Positions 2,367 to 62,624 are shown, counted from the first letter of the stretch. The stretch is DNA of 64,000 nt from Candidatus Poribacteria bacterium (GCA_963665235.2 CAXXLX010000001.1:2368001-2432000); one strand, 5' to 3'. A program made the numbers and translations. The notes: generated by a model not told the origin, from the letters alone.

Positions 2367-3422
2367 CTACGGGTAGTTATACAGATTTTCCGGTGTCTCT
2401 CTGTTATTTTGCTCATCTGTCTGCTGCACAGTGATTTCATCTGACGGTTGGCGGCGGTTCGCGTTAAATTCACGGAGGATGCAGTTGACAATTTCTTCAC
2501 TGTAGGCTTCCGCTGAAACTTTCCCTTGGTTTGCCTCCCACGCCATTCGTGCCGCTGCTTCGAAGTACTCGGCATGCTTATAAGCGTCCAGCGGGTCGGT
2601 GCCACGCGAGAAAGTGCCGTGTCCCACCCAGTAAACGATATGCCGCATCGACGCGTTGGCACCGTTCTCGAAAAGCCGCAGGCTCTCATAAGACAACTCC
2701 GGTATACCCGGGGCACGCTCTTCGACGAACCCAATCCCCCCGCAGGCATCGTACATAATCGGGGTCTCCGGTTCATATCCGCGCAGGAAATCATAAAACC
2801 GGTCAGGGTGCCCGTGTTGCGTACGCGAGATGAGGTTCAAAAACTTTGGCTGCAAGTGGACTAATGCCCGGAACCCTTGTGCTTCTAGCTGCTCGAAAAT
2901 CAGCAGATAATGGAACATTTCGCTGGTCGGGACACACGGTTTTGCTGTGCTAGTGCTTTGCAGCTCCGTTTGTGTCTGCGTTCCAAAACGCATGCGATAA
3001 TGTGTTCCATCCGGTTCCACCTCAATAACAGTCAGATTCAGGGCGGGATGTTCTATACCAATCATGTCTAGCCGTGAACCCGATTTGGTCAGAAGCACAT
3101 GCCTGCCCGCTAACCCTTTGACGACAATCTCTGCGGGAAGGGAATATCGCGGGGCATTATCGTAAGTGATGAGGCATGCTGCATCGACCGGTTCCGATAG
3201 TATGACCCCCATATTTCCCGCTGAAGCCCAGAGGTAGTCGTGTGCATGGGCATGCGCGCCTACCCATCCCATTTGCCCGATGCATGTGCCTAACTCACTA
3301 TCAGGCGAAATAGGGGCAAGCCTTGGCTGATATCCTCGCGCACACCACTGCTGGTAACGATAACTCTGCGGCGGTGGCGGCTGCGGATGTATCAAGTACG
3401 GATTGGTTAATGTTAAACCCAC
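2367..3422 (-). CDS. Class II aldolase, rhamnulose-1-phosphate aldolase-like
   Basis: WASAGNMG, LLTKSGS, PTSE, LVH and WVGHGTFSRG..PLDAY..AEYFEAAA motifs resemble RhaD. Confidence 0.65.
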   Translation of the reverse strand: MGLTLTNPYLIHPQPPPPQSYRYQQWCARGYQPRLAPISPDSELGTCIGQMGWVGAHAHAHDYLWASAGNMGVILSEPVDAACLITYDNAPRYSLPAEIVVKGLAGRHVLLTKSGSRLDMIGIEHPALNLTVIEVEPDGTHYRMRFGTQTQTELQSTSTAKPCVPTSEMFHYLLIFEQLEAQGFRALVHLQPKFLNLISRTQHGHPDRFYDFLRGYEPETPIMYDACGGIGFVEERAPGIPELSYESLRLFENGANASMRHIVYWVGHGTFSRGTDPLDAYKHAEYFEAAARMAWEANQGKVSAEAYSEEIVNCILREFNANRRQPSDEITVQQTDEQNNRETPENLYNYP

Positions 3423-3472
3423 TTGTGTCTTTTTTCTCCGTTAAAATATGTCTGCTCTGAATATTCTCTTTA

Positions 3473-3502
3473 AAATATACCATGTTTCATAGATTTTGTC
3501 AA
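3473..3502 (-). promoter_or_regulatory. Sigma70-type promoter of the aldolase-like gene
   Basis: TTGACA-17 nt-TATATT on the minus strand. Confidence 0.6.
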
Positions 3503-3547
3503 GTTAAATCGTCAAAAAGTGCAAACGGGCAATAAATTCGGTGGTTC

Positions 3548-4309
3548 CTAATGCTGGAGCGTCTGTGAGATGAAAAGCTTTGTGCGTTCGTGCTGCGGGT
3601 TGTCAAAGAAATCCGCAGGGGCGGCTTCCTCTACGATTACACCTTCATCAAAAAAAAGGATTCGATCGGCGACTTCACGGGCGAACCCCATCTCATGGGT
3701 GACAACGAGCATGGTCATACCGGAGTGTGCGAGCTCCCGCATGACATCAAGCACTTCCGAAATCATCTCCGGGTCAAGCGCGCTTGTGGGTTCATCGAAG
3801 AGCATAATCTTGGGCTCCATCGCTAAGGCCCTTGCGATTGCAACGCGCTGCTGTTGACCTCCCGATATTTCTGCCGGGTATTTATACGCCTGGTCTGCGA
3901 TATCCACACGTTCTAAAAGTGCCAACGCTGCTTCTTCAGCCTCACTTTTCGACATTTTCCGGACCCGAATGGGCCCTAACGTTATATTCTGAAGGTTGGT
4001 GAGGTGCGGAAATAGGTTGAACTGCTGAAATACCATGCCGACCTCTTGACGGATAAGGTTGATATTACGGAGGTCATCGCTGAGTTCGATGCCATCGATG
4101 ATAATTTTGCCGCGCTGATGCTCCTCCAACCGGTTCAGCGTCCGAATGAATGTAGACTTTCCGGAACCGGAGGGACCACATATCACTGCCCTTTCGCCTT
4201 TTTGGAACGAGGTTGTAATTCCTTTGAGGACGTGGAAATCGTCAAACCATTTGTGTAGGTCCTCGCAGATAATAATTGGTGCGTTTGCTGCGTTTTCGTG
4301 TTCTGCCAT
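3548..4309 (-). CDS. aapP: Amino-acid ABC transporter ATP-binding protein
   Basis: GPSGSGKS Walker [16 protein letters not shown] signature, [13 protein letters not shown]; last gene of an aap/bzt-type cluster. Confidence 0.9.
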
Positions 4310-4367
4310 TTTTTTCTGTCCTTTCTAAGATGTTTCGAAGTTGGTGTGAATTGCGTGGTCAACCCGC

Positions 4368-5618
4368 CTAGTGTTCTCCGACTCCCAATTCTGCTTCAAT
4401 TTTCTGACTGGCGTAAGACATTGCGTAGGTAAAAATAAAATAGATGACTGCAGCAAATAGGTATACTTCAGCCTGAAGTCCCAGCCAGTCTAGGTTTGCG
4501 ACAACACTTTTCGCTATCCCCAGAAGATCGAGTAGGCCGACAATAGTTACGAGGGATGTGTCCTTAAAGAGCGCGATGAATTGCCCGACGATAGCGGGAA
4601 TGACTGCCCGCAGTGCCTGGGGCAAAACGATAAACAGCATCGTCTTTGGATAGGTAAGTCCAATTGCTTGTGCAGCTTCATGTTGCCCCCTCGGAATCGC
4701 TTGGAGGCCGCCACGGACGTTCTCTGCCATGTAGGCTGCTGAAAAAAGCGTTAACCCGACCATAGCGCGTAAAACTTTGTCAAGTTGAAAGTCGCCTGGC
4801 ATAAAAATTGGGAGTAATATGCTTCCCATGAACAGGATAGTGACCAAAGGGACACCGCGAACTGTTTCAATATAGATTATGGAAACCCACCGAATAGCTG
4901 GCAGCTGACTTCGCCGTCCGAGTGCCAAAAGCACACCGAGTGGGAAGCAGGCTAAAATACCGACCGCTGCGAGAATTAATGTGAGAAGCAGCCCCCCCCA
5001 GTTTGTTGTGTGAACGGTGTTCTCGCCGAACCCGCGCAGCATTATCATAGTCCACGGAAAGGAGAGAATCCATCCACCGATGACCCATCGCTTCAATTCA
5101 TTCCTATCGCGTCCGAGAAAGAAGCTAACGCCAAAGAGTACTAAGCCGCCTAATAACCATCCCCTCTTGAAAAAAATGAGGTAGATAATATTGAAGTTAT
5201 ATTCAAGTGTAGCAGATTCAGTTTCACTATTTTTAACAATATCCAAAGGTATAAGGAGTAAAATCAGTCCAAAAATTGCAATAGCAATTGCAATGCGGAG
5301 AACCAAACCTTTCCATACTCCCGTACTCAGCCCTAACAATACAAACAAAGTATAAAGGACTATCCAGATCTGCCATACCTGTTCTATCGGATAAGATCCG
5401 ATCATCAGTATTTGCAAGTTCGCAGGGATAACTTTCCAATCGGCTTGTGTAAGCACCCACGTTAAAACGCCTTTGAAAACAAAGTACAAAAACACAAGGG
5501 CTAAGAGTGTTAAGAGGGTATTATACCAGGTGCTAAACAGGTTCTCCTTAAGCCACCGTATCGGGCTTTTTGAGGCGGATGGGGGTTTAATTTCTGGCGT
5601 AACTTCTGGGTTTTCCAT
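4368..5618 (-). CDS. aapM: Amino-acid ABC transporter permease
   Basis: WLKENLFSTW, WGGLLLTL, AENVRGGLQAIPRGQHEAA; start moved to MENPEV with an AAGGA RBS. Confidence 0.88.
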   Translation of the reverse strand: MENPEVTPEIKPPSASKSPIRWLKENLFSTWYNTLLTLLALVFLYFVFKGVLTWVLTQADWKVIPANLQILMIGSYPIEQVWQIWIVLYTLFVLLGLSTGVWKGLVLRIAIAIAIFGLILLLIPLDIVKNSETESATLEYNFNIIYLIFFKRGWLLGGLVLFGVSFFLGRDRNELKRWVIGGWILSFPWTMIMLRGFGENTVHTTNWGGLLLTLILAAVGILACFPLGVLLALGRRSQLPAIRWVSIIYIETVRGVPLVTILFMGSILLPIFMPGDFQLDKVLRAMVGLTLFSAAYMAENVRGGLQAIPRGQHEAAQAIGLTYPKTMLFIVLPQALRAVIPAIVGQFIALFKDTSLVTIVGLLDLLGIAKSVVANLDWLGLQAEVYLFAAVIYFIFTYAMSYASQKIEAELGVGEH

Positions 5619-56890: not shown

Positions 56891-57745
56891 ATGACAATAA
56901 TTGATTCTCACACACACGCATGGCCCCGCTGGCCCTATCAACCGCCGGTTCCGGATGATGAGAGCCGTGGAAAGGTTGAACAGCTCCTGCACGAAATGGA
57001 TAGGCACGATGTCGACAAGGCAGTGCTTGTCTGTGCACGCATTGATAGAAACATAGACAACAACGACTACGTTGCACAGTGTGTCGAACGTTACCCTGAG
57101 CGTCTGATTCAGTTTGCAGATGTGGATTGTTCATGGACAGAGACATATCACACGGACGGTGCAGCGGAACGGCTCAAAACGGCGGCAGAAATGTACACGC
57201 TCAAAGGCTACACACACTACCTCAGGGGTGATGACGATGGCAGCTGGTTTTTTTCGAGTGAAGGGCAACGTTTTTTTCAAACGACCGCTGAACTCGGTCT
57301 CATCGCCAGTATTGCCATGGGAAGTCAGCAGCACGCGCCGCTTCGGAAATTAGCGGCACAGTTTCCTACGATTCCGTTTCTGTGCCATCACATGGCAGGG
57401 GCGCGAGCCGGTGAGGCTCACCCCTATCCACAGCTTGAGCAGGTCCTCGCCTCCGCCAAGGTGCCGAATATCTACGTGAAAATGTCAGGGTTCGCTTACG
57501 TTTCGCAGGTCGCGTGGGATTATCCTTACTCCGATACACATTGGATAGTCCGCGCACTTTACGAACATTTCGGCCCCGGTCGACTCTGCTGGGGCTCAGA
57601 CTATCCGGTTGTCCGTAACTTTATGACCTATCAACATGCATTAGAGGCGTTCCGGACCCACTGCACCTTTATTCCGGCGGCCGACAAAACCGAAATTTTA
57701 GGCGGCACCCTCCAACGATTGCTATCGGCAGCAGGGGAGCAGTAG
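56891..57745 (+). CDS. Amidohydrolase family 2 protein
   Basis: IIDSHTH, HHMA, YVKMSG, WGSDYP. Confidence 0.88.
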   Translation: MTIIDSHTHAWPRWPYQPPVPDDESRGKVEQLLHEMDRHDVDKAVLVCARIDRNIDNNDYVAQCVERYPERLIQFADVDCSWTETYHTDGAAERLKTAAEMYTLKGYTHYLRGDDDGSWFFSSEGQRFFQTTAELGLIASIAMGSQQHAPLRKLAAQFPTIPFLCHHMAGARAGEAHPYPQLEQVLASAKVPNIYVKMSGFAYVSQVAWDYPYSDTHWIVRALYEHFGPGRLCWGSDYPVVRNFMTYQHALEAFRTHCTFIPAADKTEILGGTLQRLLSAAGEQ

Positions 57746-57813
57746 CGTAAGCACAGGCCTGCTATGCAGGGTTTTAGCATCTATTGTTTTTTTAGGCATC
57801 CTGTGATACTATA

Positions 57814-57967
57814 TACCTAAGTTGCCACATAGTAGCATAATCTTCCAGATTGTGCATATTTGTGTGCAAACTAAAAGTGGACGCTACAAATATTGCCTAA
57901 TTATCAGCATATTTTCATTAAAGACGGTGTTTCCGGGTCTAAAAACTTATAAGTAGCAACTTGGGTT
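57814..57967. mobile_element. MITE family B copy
   Basis: Same TIRs and internal sequence as 55491-55644. Confidence 0.8.
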
Positions 57968-57981
57968 ACTATATACACATC

Positions 57982-58536
57982 ATGGAAAAAACATCTGCTC
58001 TCATTCCGATTTACACTATAGGTTATGGCAGTCGTTCGATAGAGGAACTCATCGAACTGCTACACGTCCATAAGATTGCTTATCTCATTGATGTTCGCTC
58101 GGCACCCTATTCTCGCTATAAGCCGGAATTCTCTAAGCTCCCGCTAGCGAATACGCTGGAACAGCACGGTATCCGCTACGTGTTTATGGGCGATACGCTC
58201 GGTGGTAGACCGGACGACGAAACGTGTTACGTCAACGGGAAAGTCGATTATGAAAAGGTTAAAACCACGGAGGCCTATCAGCGCGGCATTCAACGCCTTC
58301 ATGCTGCCTTTTTGCAACAACAATCTATTGTCCTGATGTGCAGTGAGGGGAAACCGGAGACGTGCCACCGATGTAAACTTATCGGGGCAACCCTTACAAA
58401 TGAGGAGATAGCGGTCATTCACATTGATGAAGATGGTGAGCAACTCACACAGGAACAGGTTATTGAACGGTTGACAGGCGGACAATTGTCGATGTTTGGT
58501 GAGGAGACGTTTCATTCTCGGAAAAAATATCCGTAA
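57982..58536 (+). CDS. DUF488 family protein (copy 1)
   Basis: IYTIGY, LIDVRSAPYS, LGGRP, LMCSEGKPETCHR. Confidence 0.88.
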   Translation: MEKTSALIPIYTIGYGSRSIEELIELLHVHKIAYLIDVRSAPYSRYKPEFSKLPLANTLEQHGIRYVFMGDTLGGRPDDETCYVNGKVDYEKVKTTEAYQRGIQRLHAAFLQQQSIVLMCSEGKPETCHRCKLIGATLTNEEIAVIHIDEDGEQLTQEQVIERLTGGQLSMFGEETFHSRKKYP

Positions 58537-58547
58537 TTTAATTCGCT

Positions 58548-59039
58548 ATGAAAAAAATCAAAATTGTCACCATCGGTGTCTACGGATTTGATGAAATCGG
58601 TTTTTTCGACGCTTTACGTAAAGCAGCGGTTGATACATTCTGCGATATTCGTAGCCGACGGGGTGTACGCGGCGCAACTTACGCGTTTGCCAATAGCAAG
58701 CGGCTGCAAGCACGTCTTTCAGAACTCGGTATCCAATACATCCACCGTAAAGACCTTGGCCCGACGAAAACCGTTCGAGAAAAACAGGCAGCGGCGGATA
58801 AAGCCACGAAAACTGCTAAACGCAAACGAACTAAACTTGGGAAAACGTTCATTGAAGCCTACCACACAGAATGCCTCGACGCGTTTGACCCGAAAAGCCT
58901 GCTGGATGAACTGGGAACGGATGCCAAAGTTGTAGCACTTTTTTGTGTCGAAACTGCCCCGGATGCATGCCACCGCTCCTTAGTAGCGGATAAACTGGCG
59001 ACAGCATTCAATCTGGAGGTTGAAAATATTTTGCCGTGA
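58548..59039 (+). CDS. DUF488 family protein (copy 2)
   Basis: IVTIGVYG, CDIR, LFCVETAPDACHRSLVA. Confidence 0.85.
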   Translation: MKKIKIVTIGVYGFDEIGFFDALRKAAVDTFCDIRSRRGVRGATYAFANSKRLQARLSELGIQYIHRKDLGPTKTVREKQAAADKATKTAKRKRTKLGKTFIEAYHTECLDAFDPKSLLDELGTDAKVVALFCVETAPDACHRSLVADKLATAFNLEVENILP

Positions 59040-61753
59040 GAGTCTTAATTGTTGCAAAAACCCGAATGGGAAGTGGCGCGTGCATCGGTGCCATTACTGA
59101 GACAGGAAAAAGTGTCCGACTTATTCCGTTTAATGCTGACCCACATGAGGGTGCGAACAGAGAATATGAGGTTGGGGATATTTGGGAGATTTCCGCTGAG
59201 CCTGAAACTTCACTGATTCCACCGCATAACGAAAACATTGTGGTTCATAAAAAATCGCGCCTTCGGACAACGCAAGACACAAAAAATTTGATAAGCGCGA
59301 TTGAACTTTTGATGCCCCCGAAAATTGGAGCTCCCCGAAAACTCTATGAAGGTTTATTGAAAACGACAACTAGCGGTTCGCTTTACATTGCAGTGGACGG
59401 TGATATTCCACCTTACAGCACTGCGTTTTGGAGACCAGATCAGCCGCTTGCTCGCGATACAGAAGGGAAGCGAATACGATATCGATACCCTACCGAAAAT
59501 GGAGGCTACACGCTTACCTTTGTCGGTTTCCAAGAACCGCTTGAGACAATTCCGGCAGGGACGCTCCTGCGTGTGTCGCTGGCACATCGGTGGAGACCAA
59601 AAGAGCAGCCGGATGCTGAAGAACGGCACTACGCACAGCTCTCCGGCTGGTTCGTCGAAGAAATAGCACAAGCACAATCGGAGCGTCCGAGAGCACAAGA
59701 ATCGCCTCCGCTATCAACTCCGATGCAAACTCCCTTAGAAATCCTCACAAACGTTTTCGGACATGAACAGTTTCGCCCATTTCAGGAAACTATCATCAAC
59801 CATATCCTAAAACGACAGGATGCACTGATTGTTTTACCCACAGGTGGCGGAAAATCTCTCTGCTATCAATTGCCTGCACTCATGTTTGAGGGTGTGACGG
59901 TTGTTGTTTCACCCCTAATTTCACTCATGCAGGACCAGGTGATGCAACTCCAAAATCGTGGCATCCACGCTGCATTTCTTAATCACACTGTTGGGAACAC
60001 AGAATACGTCGCCACGATGCAGCAGGTCAGGCAGGGTAAAATCAAACTGCTGTACGTTGCGCCTGAGACGCTCGTTCGCTCCGAAATACTTGTTATGCTT
60101 GAGGAGTCAGATGTTGCCTGCCTCGCCATTGATGAAGCGCATTGTATTTCAGAATGGGGACACGACTTTCGGCAGGAATATCGACAACTGGTCACCATTC
60201 GCCAACGATTCCAAAACGCCGTTTGCGTCGCCCTAACAGCGACTGCAACCCCACGGGTTCAAAACGACATCAAAAAATTACTCAAGTTTGACGACGGAAA
60301 TGAGTTTATAGGCAGTTTTGACCGAGAAAATCTATTCATCGCTGTTGAACCGAAAGTTGAATTGCTGGAACAGACGCTCGCGTTTCTTAATAGGCATCGC
60401 GGTGAATCCGGCATTATATATTGTCAAACCAAGAAGCAGGTTGAATCGCTCTGTCGTAATTTAACCGCCAGACGGTTCTCAGTACGCCCTTACCATGCAG
60501 ACCTTGATAACGCAACTCGAAGGCAAAATCAAGAAGCATTTATTAAAGGCGACATCCAAGTAATCGTTGCCACAATTGCGTTCGGTATGGGAATAGATAA
60601 GGCGGACGTCCGTTTTGTTCTACACGCCGGTTTGCCCAAGGAACCCGAATCTTACTACCAAGAAATCGGGCGCAGCGGTCGCGATGGACTTCCAGCCCAA
60701 TGTCTTTTGCTATTTAGTTACGGCGATGTTGACACCATCAATCATTTCATCGAGCAGGGCGCACAATCCGAAAAACAGGGACGACTGGAAAGAGCACAAA
60801 CACTCATTTCATGGGCAACGTCAATAGCATGTCGACGAAAAGTGTTATTGGCCTATTTTGGGGAGCAATATGAGCAGGAAAATTGTGGAATGTGTGACAA
60901 CTGCCGCAAATCAGAAATCGACCGTGTCGACTTGACGGTACCCGCGCAAAAATTTCTTTCCTGTGTCCTCCGGACAGAAGAACTATTCGGGGAAGCTTAT
61001 GTTACTGATGTCCTACGGGGGTCAAAGCGGAAAAAAATTCTTGATAACGGACACGACACACTCTCCACATACAGCATTGGCATAGAATACAGTAAGACGC
61101 AGTGGCGATATTTGTCTCATCAATTCCTCCAACACAAACTACTTGAACGAGATGCACGGCATGGGAGTCTCCGCGTAACGCAGAAAGGTCGGGGAGTACT
61201 CAGTAGCAAAGATACGTTTTGGGGATTTTCGGTGGAATCGGTAGATATTTCCACATCCGAAGTGCTCTCTGAATATGCCCCGGAACTCTTTGAATTACTT
61301 CGAACGCAACGAGACAAAACCGCTGAGGTGGAGGGTGTAGCTCCTGAGACCGTTTTTCACGATAAAGCACTGAAAGCGATGGCGACCTATTTTCCGACAT
61401 CTGAGGAAACTTTCAGACAGATGCCTAGCGTGGGCCCCTCGAAATCGGAAAAATATGCTGATATCTTCTTGCCAATCATTTGTGATTATTGCAAGGAAAA
61501 TGAAGTGGAACCGGATACCCATGAACTTTTCGAGCAACTTCGCTCAAAACGTACAACAGTAGCAGAGCAGGAGAAATTACCGGCATATCGTATCTTTAGC
61601 AACAAGACGTTGCAAGAAATGGTGACTCAATTACCACAATCGGTAGGAGAATTTGAGGAAATTCACGGCGTTGGGCCCGTGAAAATAGAAAAATACGCCA
61701 AGTTTTTTTTGCCGATTATCCGGGCCTACTGTAAAGAACATGGTATTAATTGA
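59036..61753 (+). CDS. recQ: RecQ helicase with N-terminal dual-OB-like domain and two HRDC domains
   Basis: LPTGGGKSLCYQLP, DEAHCISEWGHDFR, ATIAFGMGIDK, QEIGRSGRDG, RQC CRR..CGMCDNC; about 205-aa extra N-terminal domain. Confidence 0.9.
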   Translation: MRVLIVAKTRMGSGACIGAITETGKSVRLIPFNADPHEGANREYEVGDIWEISAEPETSLIPPHNENIVVHKKSRLRTTQDTKNLISAIELLMPPKIGAPRKLYEGLLKTTTSGSLYIAVDGDIPPYSTAFWRPDQPLARDTEGKRIRYRYPTENGGYTLTFVGFQEPLETIPAGTLLRVSLAHRWRPKEQPDAEERHYAQLSGWFVEEIAQAQSERPRAQESPPLSTPMQTPLEILTNVFGHEQFRPFQETIINHILKRQDALIVLPTGGGKSLCYQLPALMFEGVTVVVSPLISLMQDQVMQLQNRGIHAAFLNHTVGNTEYVATMQQVRQGKIKLLYVAPETLVRSEILVMLEESDVACLAIDEAHCISEWGHDFRQEYRQLVTIRQRFQNAVCVALTATATPRVQNDIKKLLKFDDGNEFIGSFDRENLFIAVEPKVELLEQTLAFLNRHRGESGIIYCQTKKQVESLCRNLTARRFSVRPYHADLDNATRRQNQEAFIKGDIQVIVATIAFGMGIDKADVRFVLHAGLPKEPESYYQEIGRSGRDGLPAQCLLLFSYGDVDTINHFIEQGAQSEKQGRLERAQTLISWATSIACRRKVLLAYFGEQYEQENCGMCDNCRKSEIDRVDLTVPAQKFLSCVLRTEELFGEAYVTDVLRGSKRKKILDNGHDTLSTYSIGIEYSKTQWRYLSHQFLQHKLLERDARHGSLRVTQKGRGVLSSKDTFWGFSVESVDISTSEVLSEYAPELFELLRTQRDKTAEVEGVAPETVFHDKALKAMATYFPTSEETFRQMPSVGPSKSEKYADIFLPIICDYCKENEVEPDTHELFEQLRSKRTTVAEQEKLPAYRIFSNKTLQEMVTQLPQSVGEFEEIHGVGPVKIEKYAKFFLPIIRAYCKEHGIN

Positions 61754-62042
61754 AACACCTTTTTCGCTACATTCACACAAGTTGCCCCCTATTCAAAGCT
61801 GATATCTTCTTGCCGTTCATTTGTGATTGCTGTAGTTAAAAAAGTTCAACTTTTACCGAAAATTGTGGTATAATTAAGGTACCCCACATTGGATGAGAAG
61901 ACGAACCTTTGGTATTCTTTTGGTATCCTTTACCGAAGGTTCGCCTTGTCCAAGTGGCATAGCGAACTTTGCGAATTGTGAGAATACTTTGATTTAGATA
62001 ACGCTCGGATAAACACGCCCAACAAACCTACGTGCATAACTC

Positions 62043-62624
62043 ATGGAGGCTCTCATGGCATCTAGTGCAGCAAGGACTTATCTGACCCCCGAGGAGTACC
62101 TCGCTTTTGAACGTAAAGCGACAACTAAACATGAGTACCTCGCGGGAGAAATAGTCGCAATGTCCGGGGCAAGTTTTGCCCATAATTTCATCACCGGGGA
62201 TATCTTCGGTGAGCTCCGTGCTCAGTTGCAAGGCGGAAAGTGTAAAGCTGCCACCAGTGATATGCGCGTCAAAGTCAGTGAAACTGGAGCGTACTTCTAC
62301 CCGGATGTTGTCATTTTCTGCGGTGAACCTCAAGCAGAGGATAACAGCTCGGACACACTTCTCAATCCAACTGTCATCATAAAGGTGCTTTCTCCCTCAA
62401 CAGAGGCACGTGACCGAGGCGAGAAATTCTGGCATTATCAGCAACTCGCGTCCTTGCAAGAGTACATCCTTGTTTCTCAAGACCGTATTTGTGTCGAACA
62501 TCATCTTCGCGAAGGAATCGATTGGCTGCGAACCGAATTTCGGGAGCTTGAAGAGGTAATCTCGCTCACTTCAATTGAGTGCAAGTTGTACCTGCGCGAC
62601 ATCTACAGTAGCGTCGATTTGTAG
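62043..62624 (+). CDS. Uma2-family endonuclease-fold protein
   Basis: LTPEEYLAFE, HEY..GEIVAMSGAS..H, YPDV, VLSPST...DRGEK, LQEYILVSQ. Confidence 0.92.
   Translation: MEALMASSAARTYLTPEEYLAFERKATTKHEYLAGEIVAMSGASFAHNFITGDIFGELRAQLQGGKCKAATSDMRVKVSETGAYFYPDVVIFCGEPQAEDNSSDTLLNPTVIIKVLSPSTEARDRGEKFWHYQQLASLQEYILVSQDRICVEHHLREGIDWLRTEFRELEEVISLTSIECKLYLRDIYSSVDL

Follow-up and report, generated by a model that had tools for sequence, protein, structure and literature searches.

Within a 64,000-nucleotide stretch of the genome of a Candidatus Poribacteria bacterium (GCA_963665235.2 CAXXLX010000001.1:2368001-2432000; hereafter the window, with positions counted from its first letter), we analysed a three-gene operon encoding two DUF488 paralogues, DUF488-A and DUF488-B, and a RecQ helicase with an N-terminal dual-OB (DuOB) domain. 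Candidatus Poribacteria are sponge-associated bacteria of an uncultured lineage. The arrangement of the three genes is far beyond chance, as it recurs in 26 of 27 DuOB-bearing relatives and at 77 of 80 genomic loci, and the three genes are inherited, lost and decaying together. We propose with moderate confidence that the operon is the RecQ-fused branch of a DUF488-DuOB system, which would work as a helicase-coupled machine for the processing of DNA ends, with a leaning toward genome maintenance in this clade.

Domain composition of the three genes

The three genes are tightly coupled, as an earlier note on this stretch had claimed, and both the open reading frames and the raw sequence confirm the two junctions. 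The TAA stop codon of DUF488-A is followed by 11 nucleotides and the ATG of DUF488-B, and the GTG start codon of the RecQ gene overlaps the TGA stop codon of DUF488-B as GTGA. In the 5.3-Mb assembly that contains the window, DuOB is matched once and DUF488 twice, in each case at this locus.

By its domain content, the third gene encodes a complete RecQ protein. Pfam models identify DuOB, DEAD, Helicase_C, RecQ_Zn_bind and RQC domains and two HRDC stretches, the first of which lies in the C-terminal region upstream of residues 830-895, and the protein scores 727.2 bits against the NCBIfam equivalog model for RecQ (TIGR01389, cut-off 640.2). The helicase and RQC motifs are thus intact, as stated in the earlier note, and DuOB-RecQ would be expected to unwind DNA in the 3'-5' direction in an ATP-dependent manner. 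It is the only RecQ protein with RQC and HRDC domains in the window's genome, where a search for a separate canonical recQ gene found none, a stronger result than expected. The other RecQ-family gene of this genome (G000:C1:4073187-4074830; L002 901-2685, minus strand) encodes a 594-aa protein with DEAD, Helicase_C and Zn-binding domains and no RQC or HRDC domain. This paralogue has approximately 160 residues between Helicase_C and the RecQ Zn-binding domain, and proteins of its kind (~600 aa, ~410-437 bits on TIGR01389) occur in almost all of the relatives from three families.

The first 205 residues of the RecQ protein match the Pfam DuOB family PF22557 over the entire profile (positions 1-210 of 210, E 3.5e-25, 89.7 bits against a cut-off of 27). 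A single-sequence AlphaFold2 prediction of residues 1-235 was unusable (pLDDT 38), and the domain was modelled instead with a 57-sequence DuOB alignment (A1), which gave a pLDDT of 93.8 and a pTM of 0.88. The resulting model consists of two β-barrels, almost exclusively β-strand with two short helices. Foldseek searches of the PDB with this model returned first the HIN-200 domains of MNDA, p202, IFI16 and AIM2 (E 6e-5 to 1e-3, probability 0.96-1.0), followed by Teb1 AB, BRCA2, POT1 and the α subunit of the telomere end-binding protein. All of these are tandem-OB DNA binders. The HIN-200 domains were matched with TM-scores of 0.27-0.36 and sequence identities of 10-16%; with TM-scores of only about 0.3, the comparison supports the fold class of DuOB and nothing closer. 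The extra N-terminal domain of about 205 residues, suspected in the earlier note to be dual-OB, is therefore predicted to adopt a tandem OB fold, in agreement with the full-length PF22557 match.

All 12 invariant DuOB columns are retained in the window protein. The invariant or near-invariant polar positions of the family are T9, C16, R28, H64, E66, D67, R179, S181, Q201 and S203. At two near-invariant positions the window protein has a different residue, with Asn at D67 (in the PPH-x-ED motif) and His at C198; the Cys-to-His replacement at position 198 would fit a metal ligand. A PHROGs search with DuOB gave no match, and DuOB alone had no match in PADLOC, which contains no DuOB model.

Both upstream genes belong to the DUF488 family PF04343 (DUF488-A: E 1.8e-21, 77.5 bits; DUF488-B: E 7.9e-14, 52.8 bits; gathering score 22.2), and both remain below the cut-off of 27 bits for the DUF488-N3a subclade model PF22751 (20.5 and 24.1 bits, respectively). 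They are distant paralogues of each other (hhalign probability 98.5, 21% identity). The C-x-E-x5-C-H-R motif attributed to both proteins is present as C120-x-E122-x5-C128-H129-R130 in DUF488-A and C133-x-E135-x5-C141-H142-R143 in DUF488-B, and it does not vary among the 53 aligned orthologues of each protein, which were drawn from both RecQ-fused and stand-alone systems. This motif is the predicted active site. The complete sets of invariant residues in these alignments are G14, D37, R39, C120, E122, P125, C128, H129 and R130 in DUF488-A, and T8, G10, D33, R35, R37, R38, C133, E135, C141, H142 and R143 in DUF488-B. In addition, the C-terminal tail of DUF488-A (GQ..F..SRK) is kept in at least 90% of 78 sequences, and DUF488-B has conserved basic stretches (R35, R37, R38, R41; K91, R92, R94). 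Because of the invariant motifs, the conserved tail of DUF488-A and the basic runs of DUF488-B, both proteins are under selection and are probable enzymes.

DUF488 reportedly belongs to the rhodanese/Cys-phosphatase superfamily, and a 2023 study by Burroughs and Aravind reportedly predicts a role in DNA-end processing, within conflict systems, for some of its members. PHROGs searches with the DUF488 proteins gave weak matches to families of unknown function, and a search of the ESM Atlas returned DUF488 clusters only.

Conservation, spread and descent of the operon

Conservation was analysed in a sample of 41 genomes of the same order, the window's genome included, 27 of which contain DuOB. 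DUF488-A is located immediately upstream of DuOB on the same strand in all 27, and DUF488-B lies between them in each case except G040. RecQ is fused to DuOB or adjoins it in 25 of the 27. RecQ matches above 480 bits were found in 25 of the 41 genomes, always at the DuOB locus; the only RecQ match in a further 11 genomes was the ~600-aa paralogue (410-437 bits), and five genomes had no match. Since every one of the 25 full RecQs is found at the DuOB locus, the presence or absence of the full RecQ follows that of DuOB and the two DUF488 genes. In one genus, three genomes retain DUF488-A only, among which G019 was inspected.

The fusion protein is common beyond this order. A protein database clustered at 90% identity contains 960 clusters (497-1584 aa) matching the DuOB region, and all 120 of these that were listed carry RecQ families, 114 of them with a precomputed PF22557 match; the NCBI name of the DuOB-RecQ proteins is simply "DNA helicase RecQ". 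A library clustered at 50% identity gave 726 representatives matching DuOB at E <= 1e-3, and the best 150 of these are mostly stand-alone proteins of about 200 aa, with 12 of at least 700 aa. Ten longer DuOB proteins were scanned for domains, comprising six DuOB-RecQ proteins (several with a C-terminal HTH_40), three with DuOB alone and one fusion to a different helicase (P0239, see below).

A scan of species genomes (one genome per species) identified 377 DuOB loci, a lower bound that depends on the peptide pattern used, and the best 80 of them were examined together with the best 80 of 523 metagenome matches. These 80 genome loci are labelled Poribacteria, Latescibacterota, Chloroflexota, Verrucomicrobiota, Phycisphaerales and Terriglobia. 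The three loci that depart from the order DUF488-A, DUF488-B, DuOB-RecQ include two cut by a contig end and one (L086) without DUF488 genes, and in six of the 80 loci RecQ is split by a frameshift. A RecQ of at least 489 bits was found in 13 genomes of one order of Chloroflexota, and in each of them it is joined either to DuOB (11 genomes) or to DUF488-A (2 genomes).

The metagenome scan, which was seeded with stand-alone DuOB, and a scan of viral contigs contributed 80 and 3 loci, respectively. DuOB is a stand-alone protein in 77 of these 83 loci and is fused to RecQ in six. Both DUF488 genes are found upstream in 63 loci, 16 are cut by contig ends and four are irregular; among the stand-alone loci not cut by a contig end, 59 of 62 have the order DUF488-A, DUF488-B, DuOB. 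Because most of these loci combine a stand-alone DuOB with the usual DUF488 pair, the core system is DUF488-A, DUF488-B and DuOB, with the window as its RecQ-fused branch, and the stand-alone core is commoner than the RecQ-fused form. The three viral-collection loci (L188-L190, on IMG/VR contigs) contain the stand-alone core of all three genes. In the irregular locus L128 (6519-8193), DUF488-B precedes DuOB as usual and DUF488-A is downstream on the opposite strand. Thus, the linkage of two DUF488 genes to DuOB, in line with the co-occurrence stated in the earlier note, is found alike in Poribacteria relatives, genome loci and metagenome loci, and the RecQ fusion and its synteny, for which that note had called for a neighbourhood survey, are conserved across phyla. 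Absence of the fusion or synteny from other genomes, which the note had named as a refuting outcome, was thus not observed.

DUF488 and DuOB have also been joined to helicases in other ways. In a 970-aa RecQ protein that lacks DuOB (L212, G095:C35, 184-3096, minus strand), a DUF488 domain (residues 37-148) precedes a complete RecQ with HTH_40. A search with its N-terminal part retrieved 62 clusters (P0271-P0332), 60 of which have PF04343 together with RecQ domains, with labels from Chloroflexota (Anaerolineae, Ardenticatenaceae, Promineifilaceae, Caldilineaceae) and Gemmatimonadetes. The RecQ-fused DUF488 is an orthologue of DUF488-A, with 44-67% identity to the window protein and an invariant C-x-E...C-H-R motif. 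No DuOB and no second DUF488 were found genome-wide in G095, which has this fusion, or in G085, where DUF488-A is just upstream of RecQ. In P0318, DUF488 is joined to a UvrD-like helicase. P0239 (919 aa) joins DuOB to a PIF1/RecD-like superfamily 1 (SF1) helicase and a TBP-TOTE domain; its helicase part matches the PADLOC candidate PDC-M16A with 866 bits, and DuOB replaces the usual N-terminal region of that family.

That DuOB and DUF488-A have each been fused independently to RecQ and to SF1 helicases argues more strongly than any other observation made here for a substrate shared by the enzymes and the helicase. The direct DUF488-A-RecQ fusions also argue against the fused RecQ being a plain housekeeping RecQ with an unrelated pair of genes upstream.

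The descent of the fusion was analysed using FastTree phylogenies, which provide local support values only. On a tree of 163 DuOB sequences, the fused-versus-alone label requires three changes, compared to a mean of 54 for shuffled labels, and two of the three are truncations at contig ends; RecQ-fused DuOB therefore forms essentially one clade. A tree of 90 RecQ cores groups the 14 plain RecQs of one verrucomicrobial order in a single clade and places all DuOB-linked RecQs, those of Verrucomicrobiota included, on the other side. The fused clade follows phylum labels with five changes, where the minimum possible is four, and Verrucomicrobiota nest inside Chloroflexota. These trees point to mostly vertical descent of the fused clade with few transfers.

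The features of the locus are listed in the table below. An alternative TTG start codon of DUF488-A at 57961 would make the protein 7 aa longer. A consensus scan of 57500-62300 found no sigma-70-like promoter sites, and the promoter and terminator scan of the same region gave no signal above expectation.

Features of the DUF488-A, DUF488-B, DuOB-RecQ locus in the window
Feature	Position	Strand	Description	Basis
Intergenic region 5' of DUF488-A	57746-57981	+		Sequence read
DUF488-A	57982-58536	+	184 aa from ATG	Open reading frame listing, Pfam
DUF488-B	58548-59039	+	163 aa	Open reading frame listing, Pfam
DuOB-RecQ fusion protein	59036-61753	+	905 aa, GTG start	Open reading frame listing, Pfam, NCBIfam
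DuOB domain	59036-59650	+	aa 1-205, predicted tandem OB fold	PF22557, AlphaFold2, Foldseek
SF2 helicase core	59774-60688	+	DEAD aa 247-409, Helicase_C aa 440-551	Pfam
RecQ_Zn_bind and RQC winged-helix domains	60719-61210	+	RecQ_Zn_bind aa 562-624, RQC aa 628-725	Pfam
Second of two HRDC stretches	61523-61720	+	aa 830-895	Pfam HRDC, 2 stretches, E 1.4e-37

The neighbouring genes in the window are housekeeping genes, including purH and genes for an Fe-alcohol dehydrogenase and an amidohydrolase. The window's flanking genes were found again at only five of the 80 genome loci; within Poribacteria, downstream neighbours are in part common to many loci. Directly 3' of the operon is a gene for a putative endonuclease of the Uma2 family (62043-62624, plus strand; PF05685, E 1e-32), which also matches the PADLOC candidate PDC-S03 (E 3e-30). 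A metatranscriptome assembly (X14) contains a 6,246-nucleotide contig of a relative, approximately 80-90% identical to the window in three aligned pieces; it spans parts of all three genes and, being a contig, does not establish transcription or a single transcript.

Proposed function and its alternatives

In the mechanism that we propose, DuOB would hold the DNA at an end or at a junction of single- and double-stranded regions, RecQ would unwind it in the 3'-5' direction, and the pair of DUF488 proteins would act on the exposed terminus. By analogy with the rhodanese/Cys-phosphatase superfamily, the DUF488 chemistry is probably the transfer or removal of phosphate or sugar-phosphate via a cysteine. 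The physiological role would be genome maintenance, in recombinational repair or fork processing, by a module that may have originated as the core of a conflict system. Between maintenance and defence we lean slightly to maintenance for this clade, because these lineages have no full RecQ besides DuOB-RecQ and appear to inherit it mostly vertically. The housekeeping neighbours in the window and the downstream neighbours often shared by Poribacteria loci were counted on the same side.

Several observations weigh against this reading. DNA as the substrate of DUF488 and DuOB is suggested by the domain fusions and the predicted fold alone, the TM-scores of the fold matches are low (0.30-0.36), and the best of these matches are binders of double-stranded rather than single-stranded DNA. 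PDB sequence searches with DUF488-A and its profile gave chance-level matches only, with no sequence-related solved structure. A predicted complex of DUF488-A and DUF488-B with their DuOB partner scored 0.46 compared to 0.38 for the control, which is no evidence either way. The module is dispensable, as it was not found in 14 of the 41 relatives, and it decays in several others: in G038, an apparent frameshift splits DuOB-RecQ at a 4-nucleotide overlap; in G029, DuOB contains an in-frame TAG codon and RecQ is missing; and G040 retains a 286-aa DuOB remnant with neither DUF488-B nor RecQ. In G015, an insertion sequence with a DDE_Tnp_1 transposase (L191, G015:C3:18500-24500; 3142-4401, minus strand) lies inside DuOB-RecQ between Helicase_C and the Zn-binding domain, so that the Zn-binding, RQC and HRDC portion is cut off from the helicase core. 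In genomes of Verrucomicrobiota and Latescibacterota, a plain RecQ is present alongside the fused one (G045, 751 bits; G041, 543 bits), which is therefore not the housekeeping copy there. Finally, the stand-alone core adjoins defence genes and the DUF488 pair matches the PADLOC candidate system PDC-M45, both of which fit defence better.

A dedicated anti-phage or anti-plasmid system is the nearest alternative, possible in our view but doubtful. DuOB-RecQ would then sense or unwind invading DNA and the DUF488 pair would modify or disable its ends, with the RecQ-fused form as one effector variant. The match of DUF488-A to PDC-M45B (E 1e-54, 183 bits) extends over almost the entire length, and that of DUF488-B is to PDC-M45C (E 5e-12), although PADLOC lacks a model that could recognize DuOB and PDC-M45A was not identified, with none among the PADLOC matches listed (for RecQ, 25 of 36 matches). 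The preprint by Payne et al. (10.1101/2024.01.29.577857) describes the PDC systems as 145 untested phage-defence candidates embedded in BREX, DISARM or type I restriction-modification loci. Ten large same-strand genes located 3' of stand-alone DuOB, which were picked by size and not blind, include seven that are helicase, restriction, BREX, methylase or AbiEii-like; the ten comprise among others a ParE-UvrD fusion, an SNF2 helicase, a type I HsdR, an AAA_21 protein, a UvrD-like helicase, BrxL and a C5 methylase. A defence role would also suit the replacement of the N-terminal domain of a TOTE-type helicase by DuOB in P0239, the occurrence of the core on three IMG/VR contigs, the patchy distribution and repeated decay of the module, and the Uma2 gene just 3' of the operon in the window. 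However, the window locus lies outside any defence island, and the fused clade largely follows phylum lines and supplies two large lineages with their only full RecQ. The PADLOC matches of the helicase to DpdF reflect RecQ homology only: the DpdF and PsyrT defence helicases have a RecQ-family core in common with the window protein, hence the very low E-values, but its score of 200.3 bits on the NCBIfam DpdF model (NF041063) against a cut-off of 550 rules out that identity, and no dpd or psyrA partner genes are present.

It is distinctly unlikely that DUF488 acts on a small molecule rather than on DNA, making or degrading a nucleotide or an NAD-derived sugar-phosphate that regulates the helicase or signals damage, with DuOB as a binder of the ligand or of a partner. 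Burroughs and Aravind (2023) reportedly predict that the superfamily clade includes enzymes for NAD-derived sugars and for nucleotides, and the invariant and near-invariant polar set of DuOB exceeds the needs of a plain backbone binder. Nevertheless, DUF488-A and DuOB have been fused repeatedly to DNA helicases of two superfamilies, for which a shared DNA substrate is the simplest explanation. Chance adjacency, misassembly or a degenerate fusion without a functional link can practically be dismissed, since the same order and fusion occur at 77 of 80 independent loci and across the 960 protein clusters, and both the reading frames and the motifs are preserved.

A bolder proposal can be made, which we put forward tentatively. 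DUF488 proteins may form a hitherto unrecognised class of enzymes that use a cysteine to modify polynucleotide ends in concert with helicases, and the operon may be a bacterial counterpart of WRN-type machines, in which a helicase is combined with an end processor, providing the only RecQ pathway in Poribacteria and many Chloroflexota. The RecQ-less core of DUF488-A, DUF488-B and DuOB would be its ancestor from defence islands.

Relation to known systems and biological meaning

Systems of DUF488 and DuOB are already represented in Pfam by the families PF22557 (Dual OB-containing domain) and PF22751 (Active DUF488-N3 subclade), with a DUF488 pair followed by a DuOB gene as in the window. The window differs from them in that DuOB forms the N-terminus of a complete RecQ protein and neither DUF488 protein reaches the N3a cut-off. 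The 2023 work of Burroughs and Aravind is reportedly the source of both families, and it reportedly predicts a role in DNA-end processing in biological conflicts. The window's DUF488 pair corresponds to components B and C of PDC-M45, but its locus is without BREX, DISARM or restriction-modification surroundings.

Canonical RecQ of E. coli works with SSB and the RecJ exonuclease. The window protein shares the full domain set of the canonical bacterial RecQ and exceeds the equivalog cut-off of TIGR01389, and the two have a common logic of a helicase, an OB-fold DNA binder and an end-processing enzyme. In the window, however, the OB module is built in, the partners are DUF488 proteins with a Cys motif instead of a DHH nuclease, and there are two HRDC domains. 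Among eukaryotic proteins, WRN has an exonuclease domain N-terminal to RecQ, and BLM works with the OB-fold proteins RMI1 and RMI2. DuOB-RecQ resembles the WRN and BLM-RMI assemblies in combining a RecQ core with an N-terminal accessory module, either DNA-processing or of the OB type, an analogy that carries no claim of homology. The HIN-200 proteins AIM2, IFI16, p202 and MNDA bind DNA and, like DuOB, have two tandem OB barrels; at TM-scores of at most 0.36 and identities of at most 16%, this is a likeness of topology and not membership.

The novelty suggested for this architecture in the earlier note was overstated, as the link of DuOB to DUF488 is already in Pfam, the pair matches PDC-M45 and the fusion is common. 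The association of DUF488-A, DUF488-B and DuOB is thus catalogued through Pfam families and PADLOC candidates. The literature searched, a set that did not include Burroughs and Aravind (2023), yielded nothing on DUF488 with RecQ, on DuOB as this domain or on PDC-M45, and no experiment on any of the components. We have not found a description of the fused branch as the sole full RecQ of two lineages, or of the parallel family of DUF488-A-RecQ fusions.

DUF488 is a widespread family without demonstrated activity, and two paralogues locked to a complete RecQ point to a DNA substrate; this lock is evident from the operon order, the fusion through DuOB and the direct DUF488-RecQ fusion in other lineages. 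In the Poribacteria sample and in one order of Chloroflexota, both from large uncultured lineages, no full-length RecQ was found without DuOB or DUF488 partners, so models of RecQ function derived from E. coli may not transfer to these bacteria. If the operon has a defence role, a RecQ-based effector would be added to the PADLOC candidate PDC-M45. If DUF488 proteins are end-modifying enzymes, this would be the first function for a domain found across prokaryotes, including YeaO of E. coli.

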